Made by a program: the position numbers and the translations under genes. Below the pieces are notes generated by a model. It searched no databases, was not told where the DNA came from, and was given only the letters and a program-made list of their open reading frames with translations. From a virus (taxonomy: Duplodnaviria; Caudoviricetes), in IMG/VR virus record IMGVR_UViG_3300033416_000029, positions 1 to 26,240 of that record: a stretch of DNA of 26,240 nt; one strand, given 5' to 3'. Shown piece by piece: positions 3,520 through 26,033 of the stretch (its first letter is position 1; the number at the start of each line of letters is the position of its first letter).

Positions 3520-5765
3520 TGGCTAAGAGCAAAGTATTAAAGACAGATAAATCTACTGTTGAGATGACCATTGTTGAGCGTGCCAAAGCATTCTATGAGC
3601 GTGCAAAGGTATATGAATCAGATCAGCGTAAAGAAGAACTGGACGATATTAGATTCTCTGGCTTACTTGAACAATGGCCTCCGCAGCTTAAAGCAATCCG
3701 CGAAGCTGACCCACAAGGTTCAAGGCCTTGTCTAGTTGTTGACAAGGTGAATCAGTATAAAAACCAGATTGTTAACCAGATGCGTCAGAATCGACCATCA
3801 ATCAAGGCTAGACCTGTTGATGATGCTGGCGATATTGAAGTAGCAGAGATATATCAGGGAATCATCCGCCACATTGAAGATGCAAGCAAGGCAGATATTG
3901 CCTATGATTGGGCTGGTGAAGGTGCTGTAACAAGTGGCACTGGATATTTCCGTATTATCACTGAATATGTAGGTGATAGCTTCCAGCAAGAGATTCGTAT
4001 TGCACGTATTCGCAATCGTTTTACTGTTTACTTTGACCCTGATGCAAAAGAGCCTGACGGTTCAGACCAGAAGGAATGCCTTATTACGATGATGGTCAAG
4101 CGTAGTGAGTTTAAAGAAATGTATCCTAATGTTGAGGTGTCTGAATGGAATGCATCAACAGGTGATAGTAATAATGATTGGTACGATAGGGATAATGTCC
4201 GTATTGCTGAATACTTCTATATTGAGAAAGTGCAGACTAAACTGTACCTACTTGAAGATGGAAACTCTATTTTCAAAGATGAGTATGATGAAAAGTACCT
4301 TGAAAAAGAATCAGAAGAAAAAGAAGAGTACGATACGGAAGGTGAACCAGAATCAATTGATGATACTGATGATTTAGAGCCAGAGGAAAGTTTACCTAAA
4401 GAACTGCCGCCAAAGATATTAAAGACTCGTGACGGATTCAAGTCAAAAGTAAAATGGTGCAAAGTAACTGGTGCTGATGAACTAGAATCAACAGAAGTCC
4501 CAGGGAAATATATTCCTGTTGTGCGTGTTATCGGAATCGAAACTGACATTGACGGTAAACTGCATTTACGTGGTATTGTGCGCGGTGTCAAAGATGCACA
4601 GCGCATGTACAACTATCAACGCTCAACTGTAGTCGAGACTTTATCGCTTGCCTCTAAAGCACCTTATGTTGCCGCTGCTGGGCAGATTGAAGGCTTCGAA
4701 GGTGACTGGGCTAGCTCTAATCGTGTGAATCGTGCTGTATTACGTTACAAGCCTGTTTCAATTAATGGAACATTAGCCCCTGCTCCGCAGCGTCAAGGTT
4801 ATTCAGGTGTTCCGACTGGACTTATTCAGGACATGCAGACATCTGAGCATGACATTCAGTCCGCTTTAGGCATGTATCAAGCCTCTATCGGACAGGATAG
4901 CAACGCCAAGTCTGGCAGGGCTTTGAACGCGCAGCAAAAACAGGGAGACATGGCAACATTCCAGTTCCCTGATAACCAAAGCAAATCTATCAGACACGCT
5001 GGACGCATCATTATGGACATGATTCCAGTGATATATGACACGGCTCAGATTGTGCGTATCTTGGGGGATGATGGGACTCCTGATTATGTGCAGATAAATC
5101 CAGACCAACAAGGTGCGGTAACTAAACAACGTGATGAAAATGGCGAGATTAAGAAAATATATAATCTTGGCGTTGGCAAATACGATGTAACGATAACAAC
5201 AGGCTCAAGCTATGCGACAAAACGCATGGAAGGTGCTGACTTCATGATGCAATTGGTACAGTCAAGTCCTGATTTGATGCCGATTATTGGAGATTTATTA
5301 TTCAAGTCTATGGATATGCCTTATGCACAAGAAATCAGCGACCGTATAAAAAAGATGATGATGCCGTCACAATTGCAGGAACAGAAAGACGGTGAGACAC
5401 CAGAAGTGCAACAAGTAAAACAACAGGCCAGCCAGTTTATCCAGCAGTTACAGCAACAACTTGAAGCAGCACATCAGGCTATGAGTGAAGCTGAACAGGA
5501 AGCCAAAGTATTGGAATCAAAAGCCAACGATACGAAAAACAAGAATGCACTAGAAGCAAAACGTGTACAGATTGAAGCCTACCGAGCTGAGACTGAGCGA
5601 ATCAAGGTAGAGATTGATTCTGCACAATCAGAGTTCACTCCTGACAGATTACAGAGCATAGAGGAAGCGGTAGCTCACTTGATTGGACATATTGCACAGC
5701 CAGAAGAACCAATGATGCAACCAGAAGAACCTCAAGAAAATTCAATGAATGAAGGGATGCAATAA
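3519..5765 (+). CDS. P22-like portal protein
   Basis: 748 aa following TerL; QWP...RPCLVVDKV, KDAQRMYNY, GKYDVTITTGSSYATKR motifs; Q-rich C-terminal coiled coil. Confidence 0.92.
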   Translation: MAKSKVLKTDKSTVEMTIVERAKAFYERAKVYESDQRKEELDDIRFSGLLEQWPPQLKAIREADPQGSRPCLVVDKVNQYKNQIVNQMRQNRPSIKARPVDDAGDIEVAEIYQGIIRHIEDASKADIAYDWAGEGAVTSGTGYFRIITEYVGDSFQQEIRIARIRNRFTVYFDPDAKEPDGSDQKECLITMMVKRSEFKEMYPNVEVSEWNASTGDSNNDWYDRDNVRIAEYFYIEKVQTKLYLLEDGNSIFKDEYDEKYLEKESEEKEEYDTEGEPESIDDTDDLEPEESLPKELPPKILKTRDGFKSKVKWCKVTGADELESTEVPGKYIPVVRVIGIETDIDGKLHLRGIVRGVKDAQRMYNYQRSTVVETLSLASKAPYVAAAGQIEGFEGDWASSNRVNRAVLRYKPVSINGTLAPAPQRQGYSGVPTGLIQDMQTSEHDIQSALGMYQASIGQDSNAKSGRALNAQQKQGDMATFQFPDNQSKSIRHAGRIIMDMIPVIYDTAQIVRILGDDGTPDYVQINPDQQGAVTKQRDENGEIKKIYNLGVGKYDVTITTGSSYATKRMEGADFMMQLVQSSPDLMPIIGDLLFKSMDMPYAQEISDRIKKMMMPSQLQEQKDGETPEVQQVKQQASQFIQQLQQQLEAAHQAMSEAEQEAKVLESKANDTKNKNALEAKRVQIEAYRAETERIKVEIDSAQSEFTPDRLQSIEEAVAHLIGHIAQPEEPMMQPEEPQENSMNEGMQ

Positions 5766-6052
5766 TGTCATTTTCAGGAACAGCAGATAGTTTAGGCTAT
5801 CAGCAAGCAACGGTTAACACCGCAACAGGATTAACACTACCAAGCAATACAACACCAGCTTATGCCTTGATTACAATTGAAGCACAGGCGGTTAGATGGC
5901 GCGATGACGGTACCGCACCGACCGCAGCAGTCGGTATGCCTTTAGCCGTAGGTGCTACGCTTAAATATGATGCCAACAACATCAATTCATTACAGTTCAT
6001 CGGACAAGTTGCTGGAGCAATTATTAACGTTACTTATTACGGGAAGAAATAA
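5765..6052 (+). CDS. Hypothetical virion-associated protein
   Basis: Coupled to portal (TAATG); VRWRDDGTAPTAAVGMPL beta-rich motif. Confidence 0.65.
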   Translation: MSFSGTADSLGYQQATVNTATGLTLPSNTTPAYALITIEAQAVRWRDDGTAPTAAVGMPLAVGATLKYDANNINSLQFIGQVAGAIINVTYYGKK

Positions 6053-6507
6053 TGGACATTACACAAGGGATTAACGTTTCTGACCATGTAACCCAAACCA
6101 CTGCGAAAGTAATGGTTAATGGTGACACTATTTTTAACGTTGTCGGGGATATTCAGATACTTAGCCTTCTTTCTGAATGCTACACAGATAACAATGCCAC
6201 AGCTAGTACATTGCAATACTCGGTGACTACATCGCGCGGAGCTACACAAACGATATGCAATGCCTCTACATCACTAGCAAGCGCAACTGCTGGTGCTACT
6301 GTTGCGCTATCTGCCGTCAGTACATTAGCGGAGGGGCCTATTGTAACTGCAAATGGTGTTTCTATAAATACAGCATCGCGTGGAGTTAGATGCCCGTCAG
6401 GAGTAATTAAAACAGTTATTGGTGTTGGTTCAACTACTGGCACATGGAAACATTATATAAGATATGAGCCGCTGGAAGAAGGCGCTTACGTAACAGCAGC
6501 ATTTTAG
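6052..6507 (+). CDS. Hypothetical virion-associated protein
   Basis: TAATG coupling; T/A/V/G-rich beta-sandwich-like composition. Confidence 0.6.
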   Translation: MDITQGINVSDHVTQTTAKVMVNGDTIFNVVGDIQILSLLSECYTDNNATASTLQYSVTTSRGATQTICNASTSLASATAGATVALSAVSTLAEGPIVTANGVSINTASRGVRCPSGVIKTVIGVGSTTGTWKHYIRYEPLEEGAYVTAAF

Positions 6508-6539
6508 CAGTAAGTCTATCGGCTGACTTTAACCGAGCC

Positions 6540-6565
6540 AAAACCATCTTGATTGATGGTTTTTT
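6540..6565 (+). terminator. Intrinsic terminator
   Basis: AAAACCATC-TTGATT-GATGGTTTT-TT. Confidence 0.65.
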
Positions 6566-6583
6566 CATTTCTAAGGATGAAAA

Positions 6584-7447
6584 ATGAGTAAGTATTTAAT
6601 CGCAATGTTATTACCTTTCCTAAATTTTAAATTAAGTTTTGGTGATGGCGATGTTGCAGCAGTAGAAACATCTCAAGGCGAAGAGATTAAAACAGCCGAA
6701 CAGTCACCTATCACTGAACAGGTAGAGGAAACAGCGAAGCCCGCTGAACAATCGGCTGAAAAGACATTCACACAAGCAGAGCTTGATGAAATTGTTCAAA
6801 AACGTATATCAAAGCTTGAACGTAAGGCGGAACGGCAACGGATTGAGGCAGAAACACGCGCCCAAGTCCTGCGCGAAGTACAATCAAAACCTGAACCTGC
6901 ACAAGGTAAACCTAATCCCGAGGATTTCACAGATTATTCTGAATATCAGGAAGCTTTAACCGATTGGAAGGTAGATCAGAAACTTGCATCTATCGAACAG
7001 CGTAAAGCTGCTGAGATTCAAAAGGAAAGTGAGAAATCCGAAGCGCAACGTGCAAGTGAGCGACAAGCAGAACTTGTTGAGTCTGGTGAGCGTAAATATG
7101 AAGACTTTGAGGATGTGGTTAAATCTGATAAGCATATATATTCACGTGCTGCATATCTTTCTATTTTAGAAAGTGATATTGGTTCTGACATTGTTTATCA
7201 TCTTGCAAAGAATCAGGATGAAGCTAAACGCATTGCTGAGCTACCAGCTTACGCACAAGCAAAAGAAATAGGCAAATTAGAAGATAGATTGTCTGCTAAA
7301 CCGCCAGTAAAAACATCAAGTGCACCATCGCCTATCAAGCCAATTGAAGGCAAGGGAAACCTTACCAAGAAGCTGGAAGATATGACTTACGAAGAAATGC
7401 TAGAGCATGACCGTAAACGTGGTGCGCGATACCTAAATAACCGATAA
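6584..7447 (+). CDS. Capsid scaffolding protein
   Basis: Precedes coat gene; KTFTQAELDEIVQKR, EIGKLE and SSAPSPIKP motifs; charged and helical. Confidence 0.85.
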   Translation: MSKYLIAMLLPFLNFKLSFGDGDVAAVETSQGEEIKTAEQSPITEQVEETAKPAEQSAEKTFTQAELDEIVQKRISKLERKAERQRIEAETRAQVLREVQSKPEPAQGKPNPEDFTDYSEYQEALTDWKVDQKLASIEQRKAAEIQKESEKSEAQRASERQAELVESGERKYEDFEDVVKSDKHIYSRAAYLSILESDIGSDIVYHLAKNQDEAKRIAELPAYAQAKEIGKLEDRLSAKPPVKTSSAPSPIKPIEGKGNLTKKLEDMTYEEMLEHDRKRGARYLNNR

Positions 7448-7463
7448 ATAAAGGAATTAAATC

Positions 7464-8681
7464 ATGGCAAACGTTCTAGCCACCTCAAGCATCATCGCAA
7501 AGAAAACGCTGGCAATTTTAGAGAATAGCCTTTCTTTTGCGTCAAATGTAAACCGCTCTTGGGAAGATGAGTACACGGGAAATATGTCACGTGGCTATGC
7601 CCCAGGCGCAACCATTAACATTAAACGTCCGTCACGTTATACATGGCGTGCAGGTCGCGTGTCTGTTCCACAGGCATCAACCGATTCAACCGTTCCGTTA
7701 ACACTGACTCAAGGTGGTACAGATTTAAACTTCACCAGCTTTGAGCGCACTGTTGGCATTACGGAAGATTCATTGGATAGCAAAATCCAAGCAGCAATGG
7801 CAACAGTAGTTAACGAGATTGACCGTCAAGGTCTTGAAATGGCTAAGTATGCAGCTTTCAATACACTGAACGTAACAGGTGCATTGCCTACAACCCAATT
7901 AGGTGCAGTACAGGTTTATACTGATGCGATGCGCCGATTGAATGAAATGGCAGCACCGACAAATCGCGGTGAAAAAGCATTTATCATGGGTCCGGGTCTT
8001 AACGGTGCCTCTGTTGCTGGCTTGGCAGGTCTTTTCAATTCTCAAGAGAAAATCAGCAAGCAATACGGTAACGGTATGATGGTTGATTCACTTGGTTTTG
8101 TGATCGGCATGGACCAGAACGTTTCAACATTAACCTTAGGTGCAGCTACTGCAACCAATATCAATGCTGCAAATATCATAGGTTCAAACATCACCGTAGT
8201 AGCAGTTGCGGGTGGTACATTGACTCGCGGTACTGCAATTACATTGCCGGGCGTTTATGCTGTTAACCCGCAAACCCGTCAATCAACAGGAGTATTGGCA
8301 GACTTCATTGTTACTGCCGATGTGGCTTTGGGTGCAACGACAATTCCGGTAAGCCCTGCATTGGTGACAAGCGGCGCGTTCCAAAACGTAACTGCATCAC
8401 CTACAAACGGTCAGCCTTATGTGATTAAAGGTGCGGCTTCCACATCATACCAATCTAATATCGCATTCCATAAAGATGCGTTCACTTTGGCTATGGTTCC
8501 GATGGAAATGCCACCTGCCGGTACTGGCGCTCGCGCTCACCAAGAATCACGCAATGGCTTTACTGTTAAGGTTACTGACGGTTATGACTTCATCAACGAT
8601 AATAGCTTAATGCGTATTGACGTGTTATTCGGCTGGGCTGCAACATATCCAGAACTATCAACTCGCTACCTAACTGTGTAA
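7464..8681 (+). CDS. Major capsid protein (P22 gp5-like coat)
   Basis: MANVLAT...GATINIKRP...NIAFHKDAFTLAMVPM...RIDVLFGW pattern of the P22 coat family. Confidence 0.92.
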   Translation: MANVLATSSIIAKKTLAILENSLSFASNVNRSWEDEYTGNMSRGYAPGATINIKRPSRYTWRAGRVSVPQASTDSTVPLTLTQGGTDLNFTSFERTVGITEDSLDSKIQAAMATVVNEIDRQGLEMAKYAAFNTLNVTGALPTTQLGAVQVYTDAMRRLNEMAAPTNRGEKAFIMGPGLNGASVAGLAGLFNSQEKISKQYGNGMMVDSLGFVIGMDQNVSTLTLGAATATNINAANIIGSNITVVAVAGGTLTRGTAITLPGVYAVNPQTRQSTGVLADFIVTADVALGATTIPVSPALVTSGAFQNVTASPTNGQPYVIKGAASTSYQSNIAFHKDAFTLAMVPMEMPPAGTGARAHQESRNGFTVKVTDGYDFINDNSLMRIDVLFGWAATYPELSTRYLTV

Positions 8682-8686
8682 ACAAT

Positions 8687-8706
8687 AGGGGAGCAATCCC
8701 CTTTCT
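8687..8706 (+). terminator. GNRA hairpin or weak terminator after coat gene
   Basis: AGGGGA-GCAA-TCCCCT-TTCT. Confidence 0.5.
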
Positions 8707-8724
8707 AAAATAAAGGAAAATATC

Positions 8725-9429
8725 ATGTCAGTAACACTTTTACGACCATACAGTACATACGCCACTGGTGCTGTTGTAACTTTGCCAGATGCAACAGAAT
8801 CTGCATTGATTGCACAAGGCTATGCGACCGCTTCATTAACCACAGCAGTGCCTGCTGTTTTTGGCGGCCCTGATCAGACCGTTACCCAAAACGGTAACAT
8901 TGCATCTATCCAGCAATATGGGCAATCTACCCCAACATATCCACAAGGCCCATCAATCCTGCCGGTTATTCCATTGGGAAGTGCGGCATTAACCGCAGTT
9001 GGCGCATCTTCTGTACACGTAGCAGGCACTTTGAACGTAACAGAAATTTATGTACCATATTGGGGCACATGGAAAGGCGCTGGTGTGCTTAACGGAACAG
9101 TTGTTGGTACCGATAACATGCTTGTGGCCTTGTACGGTTCTGATGGCAAACTATTAGCCAATTCTGCCGTAGCTGGTACGTTATCAGCTACTGCATCAAC
9201 CTTTCAGAACCGTGACTTCTTAACCCCTGTAACGTTAGCCCCCGGCCGCTATTTTGTAGCTGTGCAGTCTAATGGAACAACTGCAACTTCTAACAAGCTG
9301 GTTGCTGCTAACGGTGTTAACGTGCTTACTTCTGCAATCGCTGGTGTATTCGGTACTGTACCTGCAACTATTACAGTTCCAACAACCAACACAACTGCTG
9401 TCGGTTGTGTAGTTCAGCTTTACGCTTAA
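8725..9429 (+). CDS. Capsid decoration or accessory structural protein (putative)
   Basis: AAGGA RBS; T/A/V/G-rich beta protein right after coat. Confidence 0.6.
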   Translation: MSVTLLRPYSTYATGAVVTLPDATESALIAQGYATASLTTAVPAVFGGPDQTVTQNGNIASIQQYGQSTPTYPQGPSILPVIPLGSAALTAVGASSVHVAGTLNVTEIYVPYWGTWKGAGVLNGTVVGTDNMLVALYGSDGKLLANSAVAGTLSATASTFQNRDFLTPVTLAPGRYFVAVQSNGTTATSNKLVAANGVNVLTSAIAGVFGTVPATITVPTTNTTAVGCVVQLYA

Positions 9430-9442
9430 TAGTTTGCTTTTA

Positions 9443-9467
9443 CTGCCCTTTTCACAAGAGAGGGCAG
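9443..9467 (+). terminator. Stem-loop between head and tail genes
   Basis: CTGCCCTTTT-CACAA-GAGAGGGCAG; no clear U-tract. Confidence 0.45.
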
Positions 9468-9490
9468 AATAAAGCTAATTAGGAGAAATC

Positions 9491-10189
9491 ATGACAACCG
9501 CATTGGATATAATCAAAGATGCAATGGGAGTAGTTGGCGTTATCGCACAGAATGAAACTCCATCATCAAGCGAATCTGCATCAGGTTTAAAAGCATTAAA
9601 TAACATGCTTGCGCTATGGGCGAATGACAGAACCTTTGCTTATACAGTTATTAATAACAATGCACCGTTAAGTAATGGCGTTATATCGTACACAATAGGC
9701 GCAGGTGGCGTTATAAACATTCCACGACCTGTTACTATCGACTATGCTTATATTCGCCTTAATAACATTGATTATCCGATGCAGAAGATAAGCAGTCAGG
9801 ATTATGATTCCGTACCATACAAAAACAATCAAGGGTTCCCGCAATATTTCTATTACGATAAAGGCTTTCCATTAGGCACCATTTATATTTACGGTGCGCC
9901 GCAAGCCAACATGACATTGTATTTTGATACATGGGTGCAATTAACACAATTCACCTCATTGGTTAATGATTTAACATTCCCGCCCGGGTATGAAATGGCA
10001 ATCGTGCATAATCTGGCTAAATTTCTTGCACCACGTTATGGTATGACTTTAACATCGGAAGCAGCAGAGCTTGCAGTTTCATCATTGGCGATGGTACGTG
10101 AACGCAATATTCCTGATCTGGTATTAAAAACAGAAGTAGGATTGATTAATGGTAGAGTACCTTATGGTTATGGTGCTTGGAGTTACTGA
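9491..10189 (+). CDS. Head-to-tail adaptor (P22 gp4-like)
   Basis: MTTALDIIKDAM...LNNMLALW...FPPGYEMAIVHNLA pattern; precedes gp10-like gene. Confidence 0.75.
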   Translation: MTTALDIIKDAMGVVGVIAQNETPSSSESASGLKALNNMLALWANDRTFAYTVINNNAPLSNGVISYTIGAGGVINIPRPVTIDYAYIRLNNIDYPMQKISSQDYDSVPYKNNQGFPQYFYYDKGFPLGTIYIYGAPQANMTLYFDTWVQLTQFTSLVNDLTFPPGYEMAIVHNLAKFLAPRYGMTLTSEAAELAVSSLAMVRERNIPDLVLKTEVGLINGRVPYGYGAWSY

Positions 10190-18124: not shown

Positions 18125-18198
18125 GTAGAGAATATAGCTAACGTTAGGGTTATCACTATTAAAGAATACTTGCCATAAAAAAAATGTAGAATGGAGCT

Positions 18199-21485: not shown

Positions 21486-21607
21486 TTTTTAGCCTCCTCC
21501 TTGTATTTAAGTTTAGGTTCGCGCCATATGAACCAGCCCAACCATAGCCCCATTACAATCCCAAAACTGTATGCAGCGATTACTACCCATCCCGGAATGT
21601 TCATCAT
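21482..21607 (-). CDS. 41-aa membrane protein, not in ORF track
   Basis: MMNIPGWVVIAAYSFGIVMGLWLGWFIWREPKLKYKEEAKK*; ATGA overlaps at both ends. Confidence 0.6.
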   Translation of the reverse strand: MMNIPGWVVIAAYSFGIVMGLWLGWFIWREPKLKYKEEAKK

Positions 21608-22083
21608 TCAGCCTTTCTTAGTGCATATAGAGGTGTAGTGCATTCAATGGTTTGTTTCCACATAATCCCATAGTCGCCATTATTTTTAAGCATTCCTATT
21701 GCTACTGGCTCACCTAACCTTCTCTCAATCTCACTCTCAACATAAGCATTAAGATCGTCTAGTGTTGGATAAGTTAAAGTCATTGCATCTTTTAGAGCCG
21801 CATTAAAATCATCATCTAGCGTATAGTCATACTCAAACTCGATACGATTTATTGCCGCTCTAAAATTATTATTCTCGAATTGTGATAGTAATAGGCATTC
21901 TTGTAGGAGTTCCATGCGCTCCAAAACATCGTCACTCGCAAATTGTGTTTTCTGAGTTAATTTACACTTAATTTCCGGCTTTAATGTCTCATATTGAGAT
22001 TTTAAACTTTCGAGTTCTATATACGCCGACTTTGCTGCCGATTCTGCATTCTGAAAACTAATTCGCCATGACTCGTAACTCAT
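21604..22083 (-). CDS. Hypothetical phage protein
   Basis: GGAG RBS before MSYESWRISFQ; ends EPVA...TPLYA. Confidence 0.7.
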   Translation of the reverse strand: MSYESWRISFQNAESAAKSAYIELESLKSQYETLKPEIKCKLTQKTQFASDDVLERMELLQECLLLSQFENNNFRAAINRIEFEYDYTLDDDFNAALKDAMTLTYPTLDDLNAYVESEIERRLGEPVAIGMLKNNGDYGIMWKQTIECTTPLYALRKAE

Positions 22084-22168
22084 AATATACTCCATATAAT
22101 CAATAACTTAATATTTAAAAACACACCTGACCAATTAAAAATAAAATACGTCATGTGGCTAATGTTAG

Positions 22169-22420
22169 TTATACGTCTTGCCCTGTCAGCGCTTTCCACG
22201 ACCGAGCTAGTTCTTCGGCCTGCGTCCCCGGCGTAAATTTTCCATCACTCGTAAAGTGCCAACTTCCGCAATACTCACGGCGAATCTCGCGCCTTGTCGT
22301 TTCGCTTTTCTTCCACCACAAAAATCCGGTTTCTGTTGTTACATCAACATCGGCGAAATACTCCAAGTCAATAGCGGTTCTCCCTTTGGTTTTTGTCCGT
22401 TCAAAATTACTTAGCTTCAT
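22169..22420 (-). CDS. Cassette 1 ORF, hypothetical (83 aa)
   Basis: GGAG RBS before ATG 22420; stop TAA is the complement of TTA in core GTTATAC. Confidence 0.7.
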   Translation of the reverse strand: MKLSNFERTKTKGRTAIDLEYFADVDVTTETGFLWWKKSETTRREIRREYCGSWHFTSDGKFTPGTQAEELARSWKALTGQDV

Positions 22421-22432
22421 TTTCTTCTCCAC

Positions 22433-22493
22433 GTATAACAGTGCCTTCAACGGCGACCGCCCTTACGGGCGTCGCGTTAAGGCGGCGTTAGCC
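22433..22493 (+). repeat. attC site 1
   Basis: R'' GTATAAC, L'' CTT[C]AACG, L' CGTTAAG, R' GTTAGCC; 61 bp. Confidence 0.9.
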
Positions 22494-22657
22494 CGCACAA
22501 AATCCACTATTGGAACATCGCACCAGACGCCATCCTCAAACCTCACTTGGAGAACCCGAAATCGTGAGTGTTGCTGCATATCAATAAAGAAGGCCGCAGG
22601 ATGTTTTGAAACCTCTCGGTCGCCTGCGGGTATATCGAGCCATCGAATGTCTTGCAT
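22463..22657 (-). CDS. Cassette 2 ORF, hypothetical (64 aa)
   Basis: GAAAGG RBS before ATG 22657; RVLQ...WCDVPIV motif; reads into attC1. Confidence 0.65.
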   Translation of the reverse strand: MQDIRWLDIPAGDREVSKHPAAFFIDMQQHSRFRVLQVRFEDGVWCDVPIVDFVRANAALTRRP

Positions 22658-22673
22658 CTTCAACCTTTCTGCG

Positions 22674-22740
22674 GGCTAACCCCGCATTGAACCCGGACTC
22701 GCGGAAAAGCGCCGCGAGCCGGTTAATTTAGACGTTAGGG
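22674..22740 (+). repeat. attC site 2
   Basis: R'' GGCTAAC, L'' ATT[G]AACC, stem CTCGCGG/CCGCGAG, L' GGTTAAT, R' GTTAGGG; 67 bp. Confidence 0.9.
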
Positions 22741-22994
22741 GCCTCGAATGTCAGCGCCTCCATCTTTGCGATGCTCTTGCGCAGAGACACAATCTTCGCC
22801 TTGCGCATTTCCTCTGCCCTGGCAAGCGCTGCTTCCGGCGTCAGGTGCCAGTCGTTACCGTGTGCGTATTGGCTGCCGTACCCGACATTCCCATAGGAAA
22901 TCATCGTTTCACTGCACAACTCCGCATCTACGGCGATGACCCCCTTTGTCAGCGCGTACTGAGTGATGTACGCCTTAATCTTCTCGTCCTTCAC
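22728..22994 (-). CDS. Cassette 3 ORF, hypothetical phage-type protein (88 aa)
   Basis: AAAGGA RBS before GTG 22994; ends EAPNV* inside attC2. Confidence 0.75.
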   Translation of the reverse strand: MKDEKIKAYITQYALTKGVIAVDAELCSETMISYGNVGYGSQYAHGNDWHLTPEAALARAEEMRKAKIVSLRKSIAKMEALTFEAPNV

Positions 22995-23020
22995 TTCGTT
23001 TCCTTTCCGGGGCGCACGGC

Positions 23021-23090
23021 CCATAACCATTCGGTCAACCGGACAGCCCTACGCTGAGCTCAGGTCTGCCGGTTACCTCAGACGTTAGCA
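23021..23090 (+). repeat. attC site 3
   Basis: R'' CCATAAC, L'' GGT[C]AACC, L' GGTTACC, R' GTTAGCA; 70 bp. Confidence 0.88.
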
Positions 23091-23091
23091 G

Positions 23092-23295
23092 TCAATCTAA
23101 TAGCTCATGTTTAAATACAGCCCACATTTGCCAGTTTTGTATTTCCGTTTCAGCTTTTTCAGCAAGCCGAGCTTCTTCTTGTTTGTGTCTTTCTATGGCA
23201 AGCTCTGCACCAGCTTCTGTTTTATGCAAGCTTAGTGTCGCAAAAGCGCTTTCATGTATGCAGTCGTTATAAACAGCAGCGTAAATTTCAGTCAT
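23092..23295 (-). CDS. Cassette 4 ORF, hypothetical (67 aa)
   Basis: GAGAGGA RBS; fully contained between cores. Confidence 0.75.
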   Translation of the reverse strand: MTEIYAAVYNDCIHESAFATLSLHKTEAGAELAIERHKQEEARLAEKAETEIQNWQMWAVFKHELLD

Positions 23296-23318
23296 AATAG
23301 TCCTCTCAATATTGTTAC

Positions 23319-23375
23319 TGCTAACCCATCCATCAAGCGGGACTTCTATGAAGCCCCTTATGTCAAACGTTGGGC
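23319..23375 (+). repeat. attC site 4
   Basis: R'' TGCTAAC, L'' CAT[C]AAGC, L' CCTTATG, R' GTTGGGC; 57 bp. Confidence 0.88.
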
Positions 23376-23632
23376 CTCATTCCCTTGATGTTCCCGAGCT
23401 TGCCTTTCGCCTGTTCCAGCCGCATGCGCAACGAGGCAACGTCCCGCTCTGCTTCTGCGATCAAAAACGAGTGTGCGGCTTCCCATGTGTCGTGCCAGTT
23501 ACTCCAGTCCGAAACCTTGTTTTCCCTACTACTCCGAAATCCATTTCGCGCCGGTAGCACAACCTGTTTGTCTGTTTCGCGATCGACTTCCAGCGCCTCT
23601 ATCTTGTCGAATCTTGTCCTGTACTTAATCAT
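23363..23632 (-). CDS. Cassette 5 ORF, hypothetical phage-type protein (89 aa)
   Basis: AAAGGA RBS before ATG 23632; ends GMRPNV* inside attC4. Confidence 0.75.
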   Translation of the reverse strand: MIKYRTRFDKIEALEVDRETDKQVVLPARNGFRSSRENKVSDWSNWHDTWEAAHSFLIAEAERDVASLRMRLEQAKGKLGNIKGMRPNV

Positions 23633-23662
23633 GCTTTTGTCCTTTCTTCGTAACCAACTGAG

Positions 23663-23728
23663 GCCCAACCCATCGGTGAACCGGACCTTCGCAAAAAGCG
23701 CGAAGGCCGGTTACCTCAGACGTTAGAC
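23663..23728 (+). repeat. attC site 5
   Basis: R'' GCCCAAC, L'' GGT[G]AACC, stem CCTTCGC/GCGAAGG, L' GGTTACC, R' GTTAGAC; 66 bp. Confidence 0.9.
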
Positions 23729-23902
23729 ACCTAATTGCGCACTATTGCTAAACCAGTCGCTTATCTTCGTTGCCAGTTCTTTTAATTTAGCTGGTCGTTT
23801 GCTATTGCAAAACCGTATTAAATCCCAAAACGCTGTCGCATCTTCTTCTGTTTCAAGAGTAATGGTTATAGGTTGAAATTTTGCTTTTTGTTCAAGTTTC
23901 AT
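23723..23902 (-). CDS. Cassette 6 ORF, hypothetical (59 aa), not in ORF track
   Basis: AAGGAG RBS; MKLEQKAKFQPITITLETEEDATAFWDLIRF...SNSAQLGV*; stop is the complement of TTA in GTTAGAC. Confidence 0.75.
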   Translation of the reverse strand: MKLEQKAKFQPITITLETEEDATAFWDLIRFCNSKRPAKLKELATKISDWFSNSAQLGV

Positions 23903-23922
23903 TTAAGTCTCCTTTAGATCGT

Positions 23923-23977
23923 GGCTAACCCTGCATTGGTATGGGACGCTTCGCGCCCCACAATTCAAACGTTAGGC
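23923..23977 (+). repeat. attC site 6 (slightly degenerate L boxes)
   Basis: R'' GGCTAAC, L'' ATTGGTAT, stem GGGACGC/GCGCCC, L' CCACAAT, R' GTTAGGC; 55 bp. Confidence 0.8.
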
Positions 23978-23998
23978 TACACTTTGATGTTCTAGATA

Positions 23999-24202
23999 TT
24001 ACAGCTTCGTCGCTTCAATAAGATTATCAATATGTACATTAATAGCTTCCCCAAGATTGCTAACTGCTACAACATTGTTTGCATTGCCAAGTGCCACAGC
24101 AATATCTCTAATAGCCTCTTTAGCTTCTCGTATAGCTTTGTTCTTGGCGCAAATACGACCATACTCCGCCATCTTTTCTATGTTGTCGTAATTATCAATC
24201 AT
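23999..24202 (-). CDS. Hypothetical protein
   Basis: AAAGGA RBS; helical 67 aa. Confidence 0.65.
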   Translation of the reverse strand: MIDNYDNIEKMAEYGRICAKNKAIREAKEAIRDIAVALGNANNVVAVSNLGEAINVHIDNLIEATKL

Positions 24203-24228: not shown

Positions 24229-24738
24229 TTAAAACTGAATATCGTCCTCAAAATAATCAAACCCAGACCCGCCTGCTGCAGGTTTAGCCGCAGCTTGTGC
24301 CGGTGCTGGTCGTGCTTGACCCTGACTTGGTGGCGCTTGATTGTAATCGCTATCACCTCCGCCCTGATCCATACCGCCATCATAGCTGGCATTTGACCCG
24401 GCGCTGTCACGACCACCCAACATTTGCATCTGGTCAGCGATAATTTCCGTGGTATAGCGGTCCTGGCCTTCCTTGGTTTGCCATTTGCGCGTTTGCAAGC
24501 GGCCTTCAACATATACCGGACGGCCTTTTTTGAGATACTCTCCGGCAATTTCTGCAAGCTTGCGGTACATCACAATATTGTGCCACTCGGTACGCTCCTG
24601 CTTCGCGCCTGATTTGTCTTTCCAGCTGTCAGTCGTTGCAATACTAAAATTACATACTGCCTCGCCATTAGGCATGTAGCGCACTTCCGGGTCGCGCCCT
24701 AAATTGCCTACCAAAATCACTTTATTCACTGATGCCAT
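24229..24738 (-). CDS. ssb: Single-stranded DNA-binding protein
   Basis: [21 protein letters not shown]...TEWH...[14 protein letters not shown] fold, G/Q/A/P linker, acidic tip EDDIQF. Confidence 0.97.
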
Positions 24739-24739
24739 G

Positions 24740-25228
24740 TTATGCCGCCTTATCTATTGGCGTTAGTTTTTCTTTACGTTTTGCCATGATTGAGTCATAG
24801 CCTTCCGGTGTTGCCCATGCAGGTAATGCAGGTGTTTCTTTAATGTGCTTATACTCATCTAGTGCAACCCATACATTAGGGAGTTGATAAAGATAGCGAC
24901 CTATGCCAAACATGACAGCAGCACGTTTAAACGCATCACTAATCGCCCCTTTTTCTGCTTCTATATCGCTATCACCTGCACCATTAGAGCGTGTAATCCA
25001 AGTGCCATCAACCAATACGATAATCTCGCAAATGGTCTTATTATCTGCATGGCTGTATCTGCATTGCCAGTTCATACCGAACACATCATCAAGCCTAGCC
25101 ATCACATCACGCGCGTCAATATAAGCTAGTGCAATACCTTTTGATTTATCTTTGCTGGTTGCACCTACACGCCAGCTAATTGACTTCACTGGGAACGGTC
25201 TTTTAAGTGCTTCTAATAATTCATTCAT
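24740..25228 (-). CDS. Rad52/Rad22-family (Sak-like) single-strand annealing protein
   Basis: [42 protein letters not shown]. Confidence 0.9.
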
Positions 25229-25373
25229 GATGTTCACCTTTTGCTAATGCTTCTAAGTATTGCTGATATTCCTGTTGTTCTTTCTGGTTATGTAGCCAGC
25301 ATTCATATTCTTCATGGTTAAGTTGCAATTCCCGATCATCACCATAATCATGAATGTATGAATCATTACTCAT
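25221..25373 (-). CDS. Small acidic protein (50 aa), not in ORF track
   Basis: AGGAG RBS; [50 protein letters not shown]; overlaps both neighbours. Confidence 0.6.
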   Translation of the reverse strand: MSNDSYIHDYGDDRELQLNHEEYECWLHNQKEQQEYQQYLEALAKGEHHE

Positions 25374-25534
25374 ATCAAACTCCTAAATGCCTCTAATGCT
25401 GACTGCTTCACCGTTAATCCAACGCTGCGATTCTTCGTGTAGTAGTCATAAAATATGTAGCCAATCATACTTAAAACTATGATGATGTAGCTGATGAAAA
25501 CGAACACACATAAATTATTGATAATCCAGTTCAT
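25370..25534 (-). CDS. Small membrane protein
   Basis: AAAGGA RBS before ATG 25534; one TM segment. Confidence 0.6.
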   Translation of the reverse strand: MNWIINNLCVFVFISYIIIVLSMIGYIFYDYYTKNRSVGLTVKQSALEAFRSLI

Positions 25535-25535
25535 T

Positions 25536-25919
25536 CTATTCCTTTGGTCGATAACAATACAAGGGTTTAGGTCTATAATCATTGCAATTCTTGTTACCTT
25601 TTATTTTGTTACATTTTGAACATAGAACTTGTAAATTTGTAAATTCAAACGTTAATTCAGGATAAAATTTACGAGGTTTTATATGATCAACATTTATTTT
25701 TATAGTATTAGATGCACATACTCCACATTTCATACATTTATACCCATATACAGATAAAACATTTTTTCTAAGCTCTTTCCATTCCTTTGAATAAAGTGCA
25801 GAGTTTGATGTTTTAGTTAAAATTGCAACTTCACAATCAGTCATTTTTGAAATTTTGTGCATTGATGAAATTTTCAAAGCTTTTTTGTTAAGTCTAATTT
25901 TTAACGCTTTTGTAGACAT
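25536..25919 (-). CDS. HNH endonuclease
   Basis: CMKCG, VDHIKP, NLQVLCSKCNKIKG motifs. Confidence 0.92.
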   Translation of the reverse strand: MSTKALKIRLNKKALKISSMHKISKMTDCEVAILTKTSNSALYSKEWKELRKNVLSVYGYKCMKCGVCASNTIKINVDHIKPRKFYPELTFEFTNLQVLCSKCNKIKGNKNCNDYRPKPLYCYRPKE

Positions 25920-25933
25920 TTGTTTCGCCCAAT

Positions 25934-26033
25934 AAAAAAGGCTTCACCTGGATACTCACCTTTAAGGTGTTGGTGGAGCGGTATAGTAACCGCCAGTATC
26001 CATGTGAAGCCTTACTATGTTTATTGCCACCAA
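25934..26033 (-). ncRNA. c4 antisense / P4 CI-like structured RNA with upstream complementary target sites
   Basis: 19-bp closing stem (25938-25956 with 25995-26013, 1 mismatch), two inner hairpins, single-stranded segments complementary to 26012-26018 and 26027-26033, U-tract after stem. Confidence 0.7.

Follow-up and report, generated by a model that had tools for sequence, protein, structure and literature searches.

The principal finding of this analysis is that a phage early operon carries six attC cassettes whose genes are all antisense to their attC sites, and we consider it likely that this array was built and is reshuffled by the integrase IntI supplied in trans. The phage record, IMGVR_UViG_3300033416_000029, is the window itself, that is, the whole linear stretch of 26,240 bases that was analysed, and is about 70% complete. 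It holds more than the two attC sites within a few kb, with no intI nearby, that define a CALIN, and its sequence indicates a real phage CALIN of an inverted-cassette kind, one example of a class. The array has strong comparative support, while its activity is predicted.

The six attC sites have the positions and the anatomy of the original prediction, and both a looser attC scanner and a covariance model place all top strands on the plus strand (Table 1). Each site consists of an R'' ending AAC, a 5-nt spacer, an 8-nt L'' with one extra base, a stem-loop, a 7-nt L', a 5-6-nt spacer and an R' starting GTT; the extrahelical base in L'' and the asymmetric spacers define one recombinogenic strand, which is the same for all six. 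In all 26,240 bases the looser scanner returns these six sites alone. A stricter scanner returns four sites in 22100-24050 plus one hit at 9281, outside the array, and in a dinucleotide-shuffle control it found no site in 297/300 sequences and one site in 3/300. The covariance-model check that had been suggested was run with a model built from 52 bacterial attC only, none of them from the window or from phages, and it returned exactly the six sites at 35-61 bits, the next hit scoring 11.6 bits. Folding is weak or includes mismatches in two of the sites, attC4 and attC6. At 23301-23341, which spans the ribosome site, R'' and L'' of attC4, 41 bases are shared with another contig in runs X1 and X2; beyond these bases the contig diverges, with another gene start on one flank and, in X2, another stem-loop on the opposite flank, and we read it as a sister cassette that has its front end in common with ours.

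As had also been predicted, the sites delimit units of 319, 247, 350, 285, 353 and 249 bp with one ORF each. The original prediction did not mention the polarity of these ORFs relative to attC. In the usual cassette layout the gene is on the attC top strand and the attC follows the gene; here all six ORFs, together with their ribosome sites, are on the minus strand and so antisense to the attC top strand (6/6). The ORFs end in three ways: in two the stop is the core TAA, three translate the core AAC into Asn and terminate inside the adjacent attC, and one stops just before the core. Since the stop codons of three of the six genes thus lie in the attC next door, reshuffling would alter the last residues of their products. 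A stop within three codons of the core is found at 5/6 sites of the window and at 64/252 viral versus 102/271 bacterial sites, which is no enrichment in viral over bacterial sites. The GC content is 48-55% in cassettes 1, 2, 3 and 5 versus 38-42% in the backbone.

Table 1. Features of the attC array and of the adjoining early region, in window coordinates
Feature	Position	Strand	Score or remark
attC1	22433..22493	+	35.2 bits
attC2	22674..22740	+	51.8 bits
attC3	23021..23090	+	56.8 bits
attC4	23319..23375	+	47.3 bits
attC5	23663..23728	+	61.4 bits
attC6, promoter-proximal array end	23923..23977	+	37.5 bits
Distal array boundary, GTT core at 22168, no hairpin before; candidate attI-like entry site	22159..22174	+	core pattern
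Cassette 1 ORF, 83 aa	22169..22420	-	TAA stop inside GTTA core; cassette 22169-22487
Cassette 2 ORF, 64 aa	22463..22657	-	core AAC read as Asn, stop inside attC1; cassette 22488-22734
Cassette 3 ORF, 88 aa, phrog_22725	22728..22994	-	end ...PNV* through core; cassette 22735-23084
Cassette 4 ORF, 67 aa	23092..23295	-	stop just before core; cassette 23085-23369
Cassette 5 ORF, 89 aa, viral family	23363..23632	-	end ...PNV* through core; cassette 23370-23722
Cassette 6 ORF, 59 aa	23723..23902	-	TAA stop in core; cassette 23723-23971
160-aa ORF, not a recombinase	21604..22086	-	occupies intI position of IntI-carrying phages; no PHROG/Pfam family
Early operon upstream of array: HNH nuclease, Erf-like annealing protein, SSB	24229..25919	-	PHROG; strand shared with cassette ORFs

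In integron logic, complementarity of a unit with its own core is the mark of a unit that was circularised and then inserted at G^TT. The seven bases after the entry GTT match the R'' of the unit's own attC at 37/42 positions, versus 16/42 for the R' of that same site, and this match defines the first core at 22168, where no hairpin stands. At this boundary 6/7 bases after GTT match the R'' of attC1, and CTA-N6-GTT (CTA at -9..-7) is present, as it is at 5/14 hairpin-less boundaries of other phage arrays; the background for CTA at -9..-7 is 10/1011 GTTs in the window. Scored with a matrix of 28 attI sites from IntI-carrying phages, the boundary comes only 37th of 1009, a poor fit. The 160-aa ORF is similar at its N-terminus to an ORF from a cassette in phage L408 (32% over 63 aa, E 1.5e-4), so that a collapsed attC, rather than an attI, may stand at the boundary. 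A 375-base contig of run X1 shares 22093-22142 beside the boundary and has other DNA at the position of this ORF.

By PHROG matches, the terminase, portal and capsid genes of the phage are on the plus strand and the early operon is on the minus strand, with the array between SSB on one side and, on the other, small genes adjoining the lysis region. No Pfam family scored over cut-off for the ten ORFs inside and adjoining the array. As originally stated for the window, there is no integrase: PF00589 gave 0 candidates for a tyrosine recombinase in the record (~70% of the genome), and no intI stands beside the array, where 22 kb are present on that side and ~30% of the genome is missing. A promoter scan performed at chance level (12 found versus 13.3 expected), and its best consensus match is 26074-26047 on the minus strand. 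A long imperfect inverted repeat lies upstream of the early operon at 25944-26014, between this match and the HNH gene, and a lone palindrome at 18138-18147, between a tail-fibre assembly gene and the next gene, joins the two cores AAC and GTT directly and may be due to chance. BLASTN of the array found nothing among GenBank phages and a single attC-sized match among plasmids; an attC of the array matches a site on a Cupriavidus plasmid at 82%. The terminase relatives gave no host assignment, and the type of attC suggests a betaproteobacterial-like host.

Antisense gene polarity is the rule in phages. One attC-half pattern yielded 72 viral loci and 142 bacterial stretches of about 560, equal to 139 loci, some 60 of them short, and the viral side was enlarged by 80 Erf loci and 50 IntI loci to 202 loci. 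At least one attC-to-attC unit was found in 52/202 viral and 41/139 bacterial loci. With ORF orientation assigned by our own heuristic caller, the 166 unique viral cassettes comprise 134 antisense, 22 ambiguous and 10 sense, versus 103 sense, 40 ambiguous and 24 antisense among the 167 unique bacterial cassettes. Counted by locus, the ratio of antisense to sense is 47:3 of 52 viral versus 2:31 of 41 bacterial loci, the rest being tied (Fisher p 5e-17, for loci that are not fully independent). As a check on the caller, PHROG families were matched by 43/130 antisense viral ORFs versus 16/99 sense bacterial ORFs; BLAST between the two ORF sets gave no match. The top-strand purine content exceeds 0.5 in 1/121 viral versus 71/167 bacterial cassettes. 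Depositor annotations concur with antisense polarity for Rctr41k, MW202573 and PH101, and the array of TJE1 described by Qi et al. is sense; the covariance model assigns the same polarities to MW202573, PH101 and TJE1, and it found no site in 6/9 published or GenBank records examined. A named function is available for 21/43 PHROG-matching antisense phage ORFs, and 18/21 of these are DNA methyltransferases, Mom-like, queuine transglycosylase, PAPS reductase or Lar-like, that is, predicted functions in DNA modification or restriction evasion. Phage L408 has two inverted arrays (483-1741 and 7404-9508), one per divergent operon, and many long phage attC (L303 10117-10753; L405-L407) appear to hold a ribosome site and start codon in the hairpin loop.

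Some phages with such cassettes carry IntI themselves. An IntI over cut-off was found in 1/35 array-bearing viral records and in 0/10 of those at least 90% complete, and a search starting from this single IntI led to 50 viral loci with an IntI relative. Their 34 unique cassettes are antisense in 29 cases, ambiguous in five and sense in none. On TIGR02249 (cut-off 265) two phage IntIs scored 479 and 473 bits, and one of these two is 55% identical to IntI1 over its length. Two genomes, G442 and G452, are complete with terminal repeats and show a repressor, the early operon, the array, intI and then a separate lysogeny integrase; their virion genes differ. Phage identity was checked by PHROG for these two complete genomes only, because the PF17289 terminase matched in only 3/35 IntI-carrying records. 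In the IntI-carrying phages, intI is co-directional with the cassette genes and lies between the early operon and the lysogeny integrase, and where an attI is identifiable, intI starts within about 100 bases of it. A LexA-box pattern occurred near attI in 1/35 phage and 2/22 bacterial IntI loci, which is no contrast and gives no indication of SOS control. Repeated TGTCG/CGACA words, possibly accessory binding sites, are seen in L307-L342 around attI and inside the start of intI. A different arrangement is seen in virus Rctr41k (L355, KX853513), where an IntI-like gene is accompanied, within 4680-9434, by three long attC-like sites that run antisense to annotated genes; these sites are downstream of the integrase gene, not upstream, and the IntI-like gene is some 2.7 kb away.

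A quick tree of 75 IntIs and 2 outgroups, cleared of duplicates, of broken or short matches and of two unpublished loci, places 27 viral IntIs on one branch (SH-aLRT 98, no bootstrap) with 0 of 38 bacterial-type rows inside. Ten other viral IntIs are found elsewhere in the tree, which means that IntI was captured several times. The bacterial sample is small, with a best match of 65% identity among 401 genomes, whereas 120 database proteins, given with no genomic context, are 74-100% identical, so the clade may include chromosomal members.

The comparison of related phage arrays at G^TT that the original prediction proposed was carried out, and it reveals gains and losses at this position. L308 differs from the near-identical L307 by an additional 339-bp cassette, situated exactly at the attI G^TT, and by a further internal insertion, and the near-identical pairs L312/L313 and L336/L339 also part at GTT. 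The claim of a shufflable platform thus stands in that the attC cassettes are real and other phage arrays gain or lose cassettes at G^TT, while recombination in the present phage is only inferred, because no close relative with a changed array was found. Relatives of the Erf gene were searched in 80 viral and 80 metagenome loci, one of which is this record; arrays occur in 3 of the viral loci and in L421/L422, none of them a close relative and with no shared cassette, and the nearest Erf relative, L080 (88%), has other genes downstream and no attC within the 1 kb available. No RNA run was listed among the sequencing runs. In the contigs of three sequencing runs there is no joint that skips a cassette, and contigs drop rare variants.

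Homologues of single cassettes provide further traces. Cassette 5 has 73 homologues, and its atlas look-alikes are mostly viral; a protein identical to that of cassette 5 is encoded on a contig of 36,379 bases. An 86% homologue is itself a cassette, in L490, where DNA similarity begins at the crossover while the neighbours and attC differ. Among 64 parsed homologues, 32 keep the Asn, after which the tails differ, and 32 are without the Asn pattern. For cassette 6, the ORF of a cassette in L321, a phage that carries IntI, is a 47% homologue. Plain-gene homologues without attC exist for cassettes 1, 3 and 5: the 56% homologue of cassette 1 in L511 is such an ordinary gene, and the homologues of cassette 3 are ordinary genes in L002-L004 and stand beside an attC half in L008/L020.

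How might such an array work? IntI recombines the folded bottom strand of attC, according to the accessible text of two reports (PMC5371416, PMC8946536). Here this is the coding strand, which IntI would bind in its folded form and cut at the core, and the excised circle would consist of hairpin, ribosome site and gene, to be reinserted at an attI-like site or at another core. The cassette genes have ribosome sites and apparently no promoter of their own, and would be read from an early promoter beyond HNH/Erf/SSB. Transcription from this side would account for a hairpin that precedes its gene and for an entry site at the far end of the operon. The newest cassette would enter at the distal end and be read last, which is the reverse of a bacterial integron, and any Pc promoter pointing from attI towards the cassettes would read their non-coding strand. 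The likely purpose would be quick exchange of accessory early genes. As to the source of the enzyme, the record is without a tyrosine recombinase and IntI is absent in 10/10 near-complete array phages, which makes supply in trans likely. The original prediction had proposed a host IntI in trans or a phage tyrosine recombinase outside the window; a trans-acting enzyme is still the best reading, and the candidates go beyond these two, as the enzyme could be encoded by the host chromosome or by a temperate phage that carries IntI and is either resident or co-infecting.

Several other explanations have to be weighed. The array could be a frozen one, assembled by IntI in an ancestor and now without a cognate integrase, so that only Erf/SSB recombination between similar attC halves would act on it. 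The lack of an integrase in the record, the weak attI match at the left boundary, the 21 identical bases in common between attC3 and attC5, the presence of Erf and SSB just upstream and the decayed cassettes that occur in L001, L008 and L020 all agree with this. However, all six sites keep their cores, extra base and pairing, the own-core complementarity is so nearly intact that it suggests recent insertion, and the GC content is mixed, and we therefore regard a frozen array as unlikely. A somewhat smaller chance is given to an IntI or other tyrosine recombinase of the phage's own, encoded in the missing part of the genome. Such a gene is conceivable given the incompleteness of the record, the existence of phages with their own IntI and the distance between the IntI-like gene and its sites in Rctr41k, but the place that intI takes elsewhere is held by an unrelated ORF and none of the ten near-complete array-bearing phages has an IntI.

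It is very improbable that a piece of a host chromosomal integron was captured whole, as in the Vibrio/Shewanella prophages of Qi et al. The attC are indeed of ordinary bacterial type, and one resembles the Cupriavidus plasmid site, but a captured or flipped array keeps its genes sense to attC, as those of M16-3 and Va_90-11-286_p16 do, whereas here none is sense, and the genes of cassettes 3, 5 and 6 fall into phage families. That the sites are hairpins acting in RNA, as terminators or processing sites, or palindromes that arose by chance between early genes can hardly be maintained. Hairpins between the genes of an operon would fit this idea, but not the fixed box spacing, the one-sided extra base, the GTT/AAC cores, the own-core complementarity or the shuffle control, and none of the six was called a terminator. 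Recombination by an IntI in trans thus remains our preferred reading. A broader proposal, to which we give even chances, is that phages maintain a cassette economy of their own, in which a pool of inverted early and counter-defence cassettes, separated from the bacterial pool by polarity and served by a phage-specific IntI clade, would be mobilised in trans on integrase-less phages.

The original prediction regarded attC in phages as rarely reported, a novelty that falls away with the phage attC clusters already published (PMC9892861). The distinctive feature is the inverted gene polarity rather than attC in a phage. In the accessible text of Qi et al. 2023, 17 CALINs and 3 complete integrons are described in 10,705 phage genomes, IntI1 recombined 5/6 phage attC examined, and the PH101 attC was recombined by IntI1 with the bottom strand favoured over the top (PMC9892861). 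PH101 attC2 is on the plus strand between genes that its depositor annotated on the minus strand; being both IntI1-active and flanked by antisense genes, it in effect validates an inverted phage cassette site. The phage CALINs of that text share with ours an attC cluster without intI, small early and methyltransferase genes and a site type recombined by IntI1, and they are treated there as bacterial-type arrays (PMC9892861); the present phage differs from them in having six tandem one-gene cassettes, all antisense. The temperate-phage complete integrons of the same text (Va_90-11-286_p16, M16-3 and P1; PMC9892861) also place integron parts in a phage genome, but as captured integrons of bacteria; their genes diverge from intI, and their regular polarity was checked in M16-3 and Va_90-11-286_p16. 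The inverted-integrase integrons described in the available part of PMC13323075 are likewise an orientation variant, in which intI is flipped relative to attC, whereas in phage integrons the intI/attC geometry is regular and the cargo genes are flipped. The words 'antisense', 'reverse' and 'opposite' are absent from the accessible text of PMC9892861, and that of PMC13323075 and PMC13676570 does not describe inverted phage cassettes or a phage IntI clade. In the literature searched, outside which most subscription journals lie, no publication on either the polarity rule or such a clade was found. With bacterial integrons (class 1, and the sedentary chromosomal ones of Betaproteobacteria) the present array shares the anatomy, the G^TT crossover, own-core complementarity and one promoterless gene per cassette. 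It differs from them in its antisense genes, in a hairpin that stands before the gene, in predicted expression from the far end of the array, in the lack of intI or Pc alongside and in its phage-family cargo.

Integrons are viewed as bacterial adaptation devices and lately as stores of anti-phage defence. With their reversed polarity, the phage cassettes would fit into an early operon and would not be expressed from the Pc promoter of a host. The occurrence of the same families with and without attC, as for cassettes 1, 3 and 5, makes the origin of cassettes testable by comparison. If our reading is true, phages use integron chemistry for their own accessory genes, IntI would be a site-specific source of phage mosaicism, and the same enzyme would serve both sides of the arms race.
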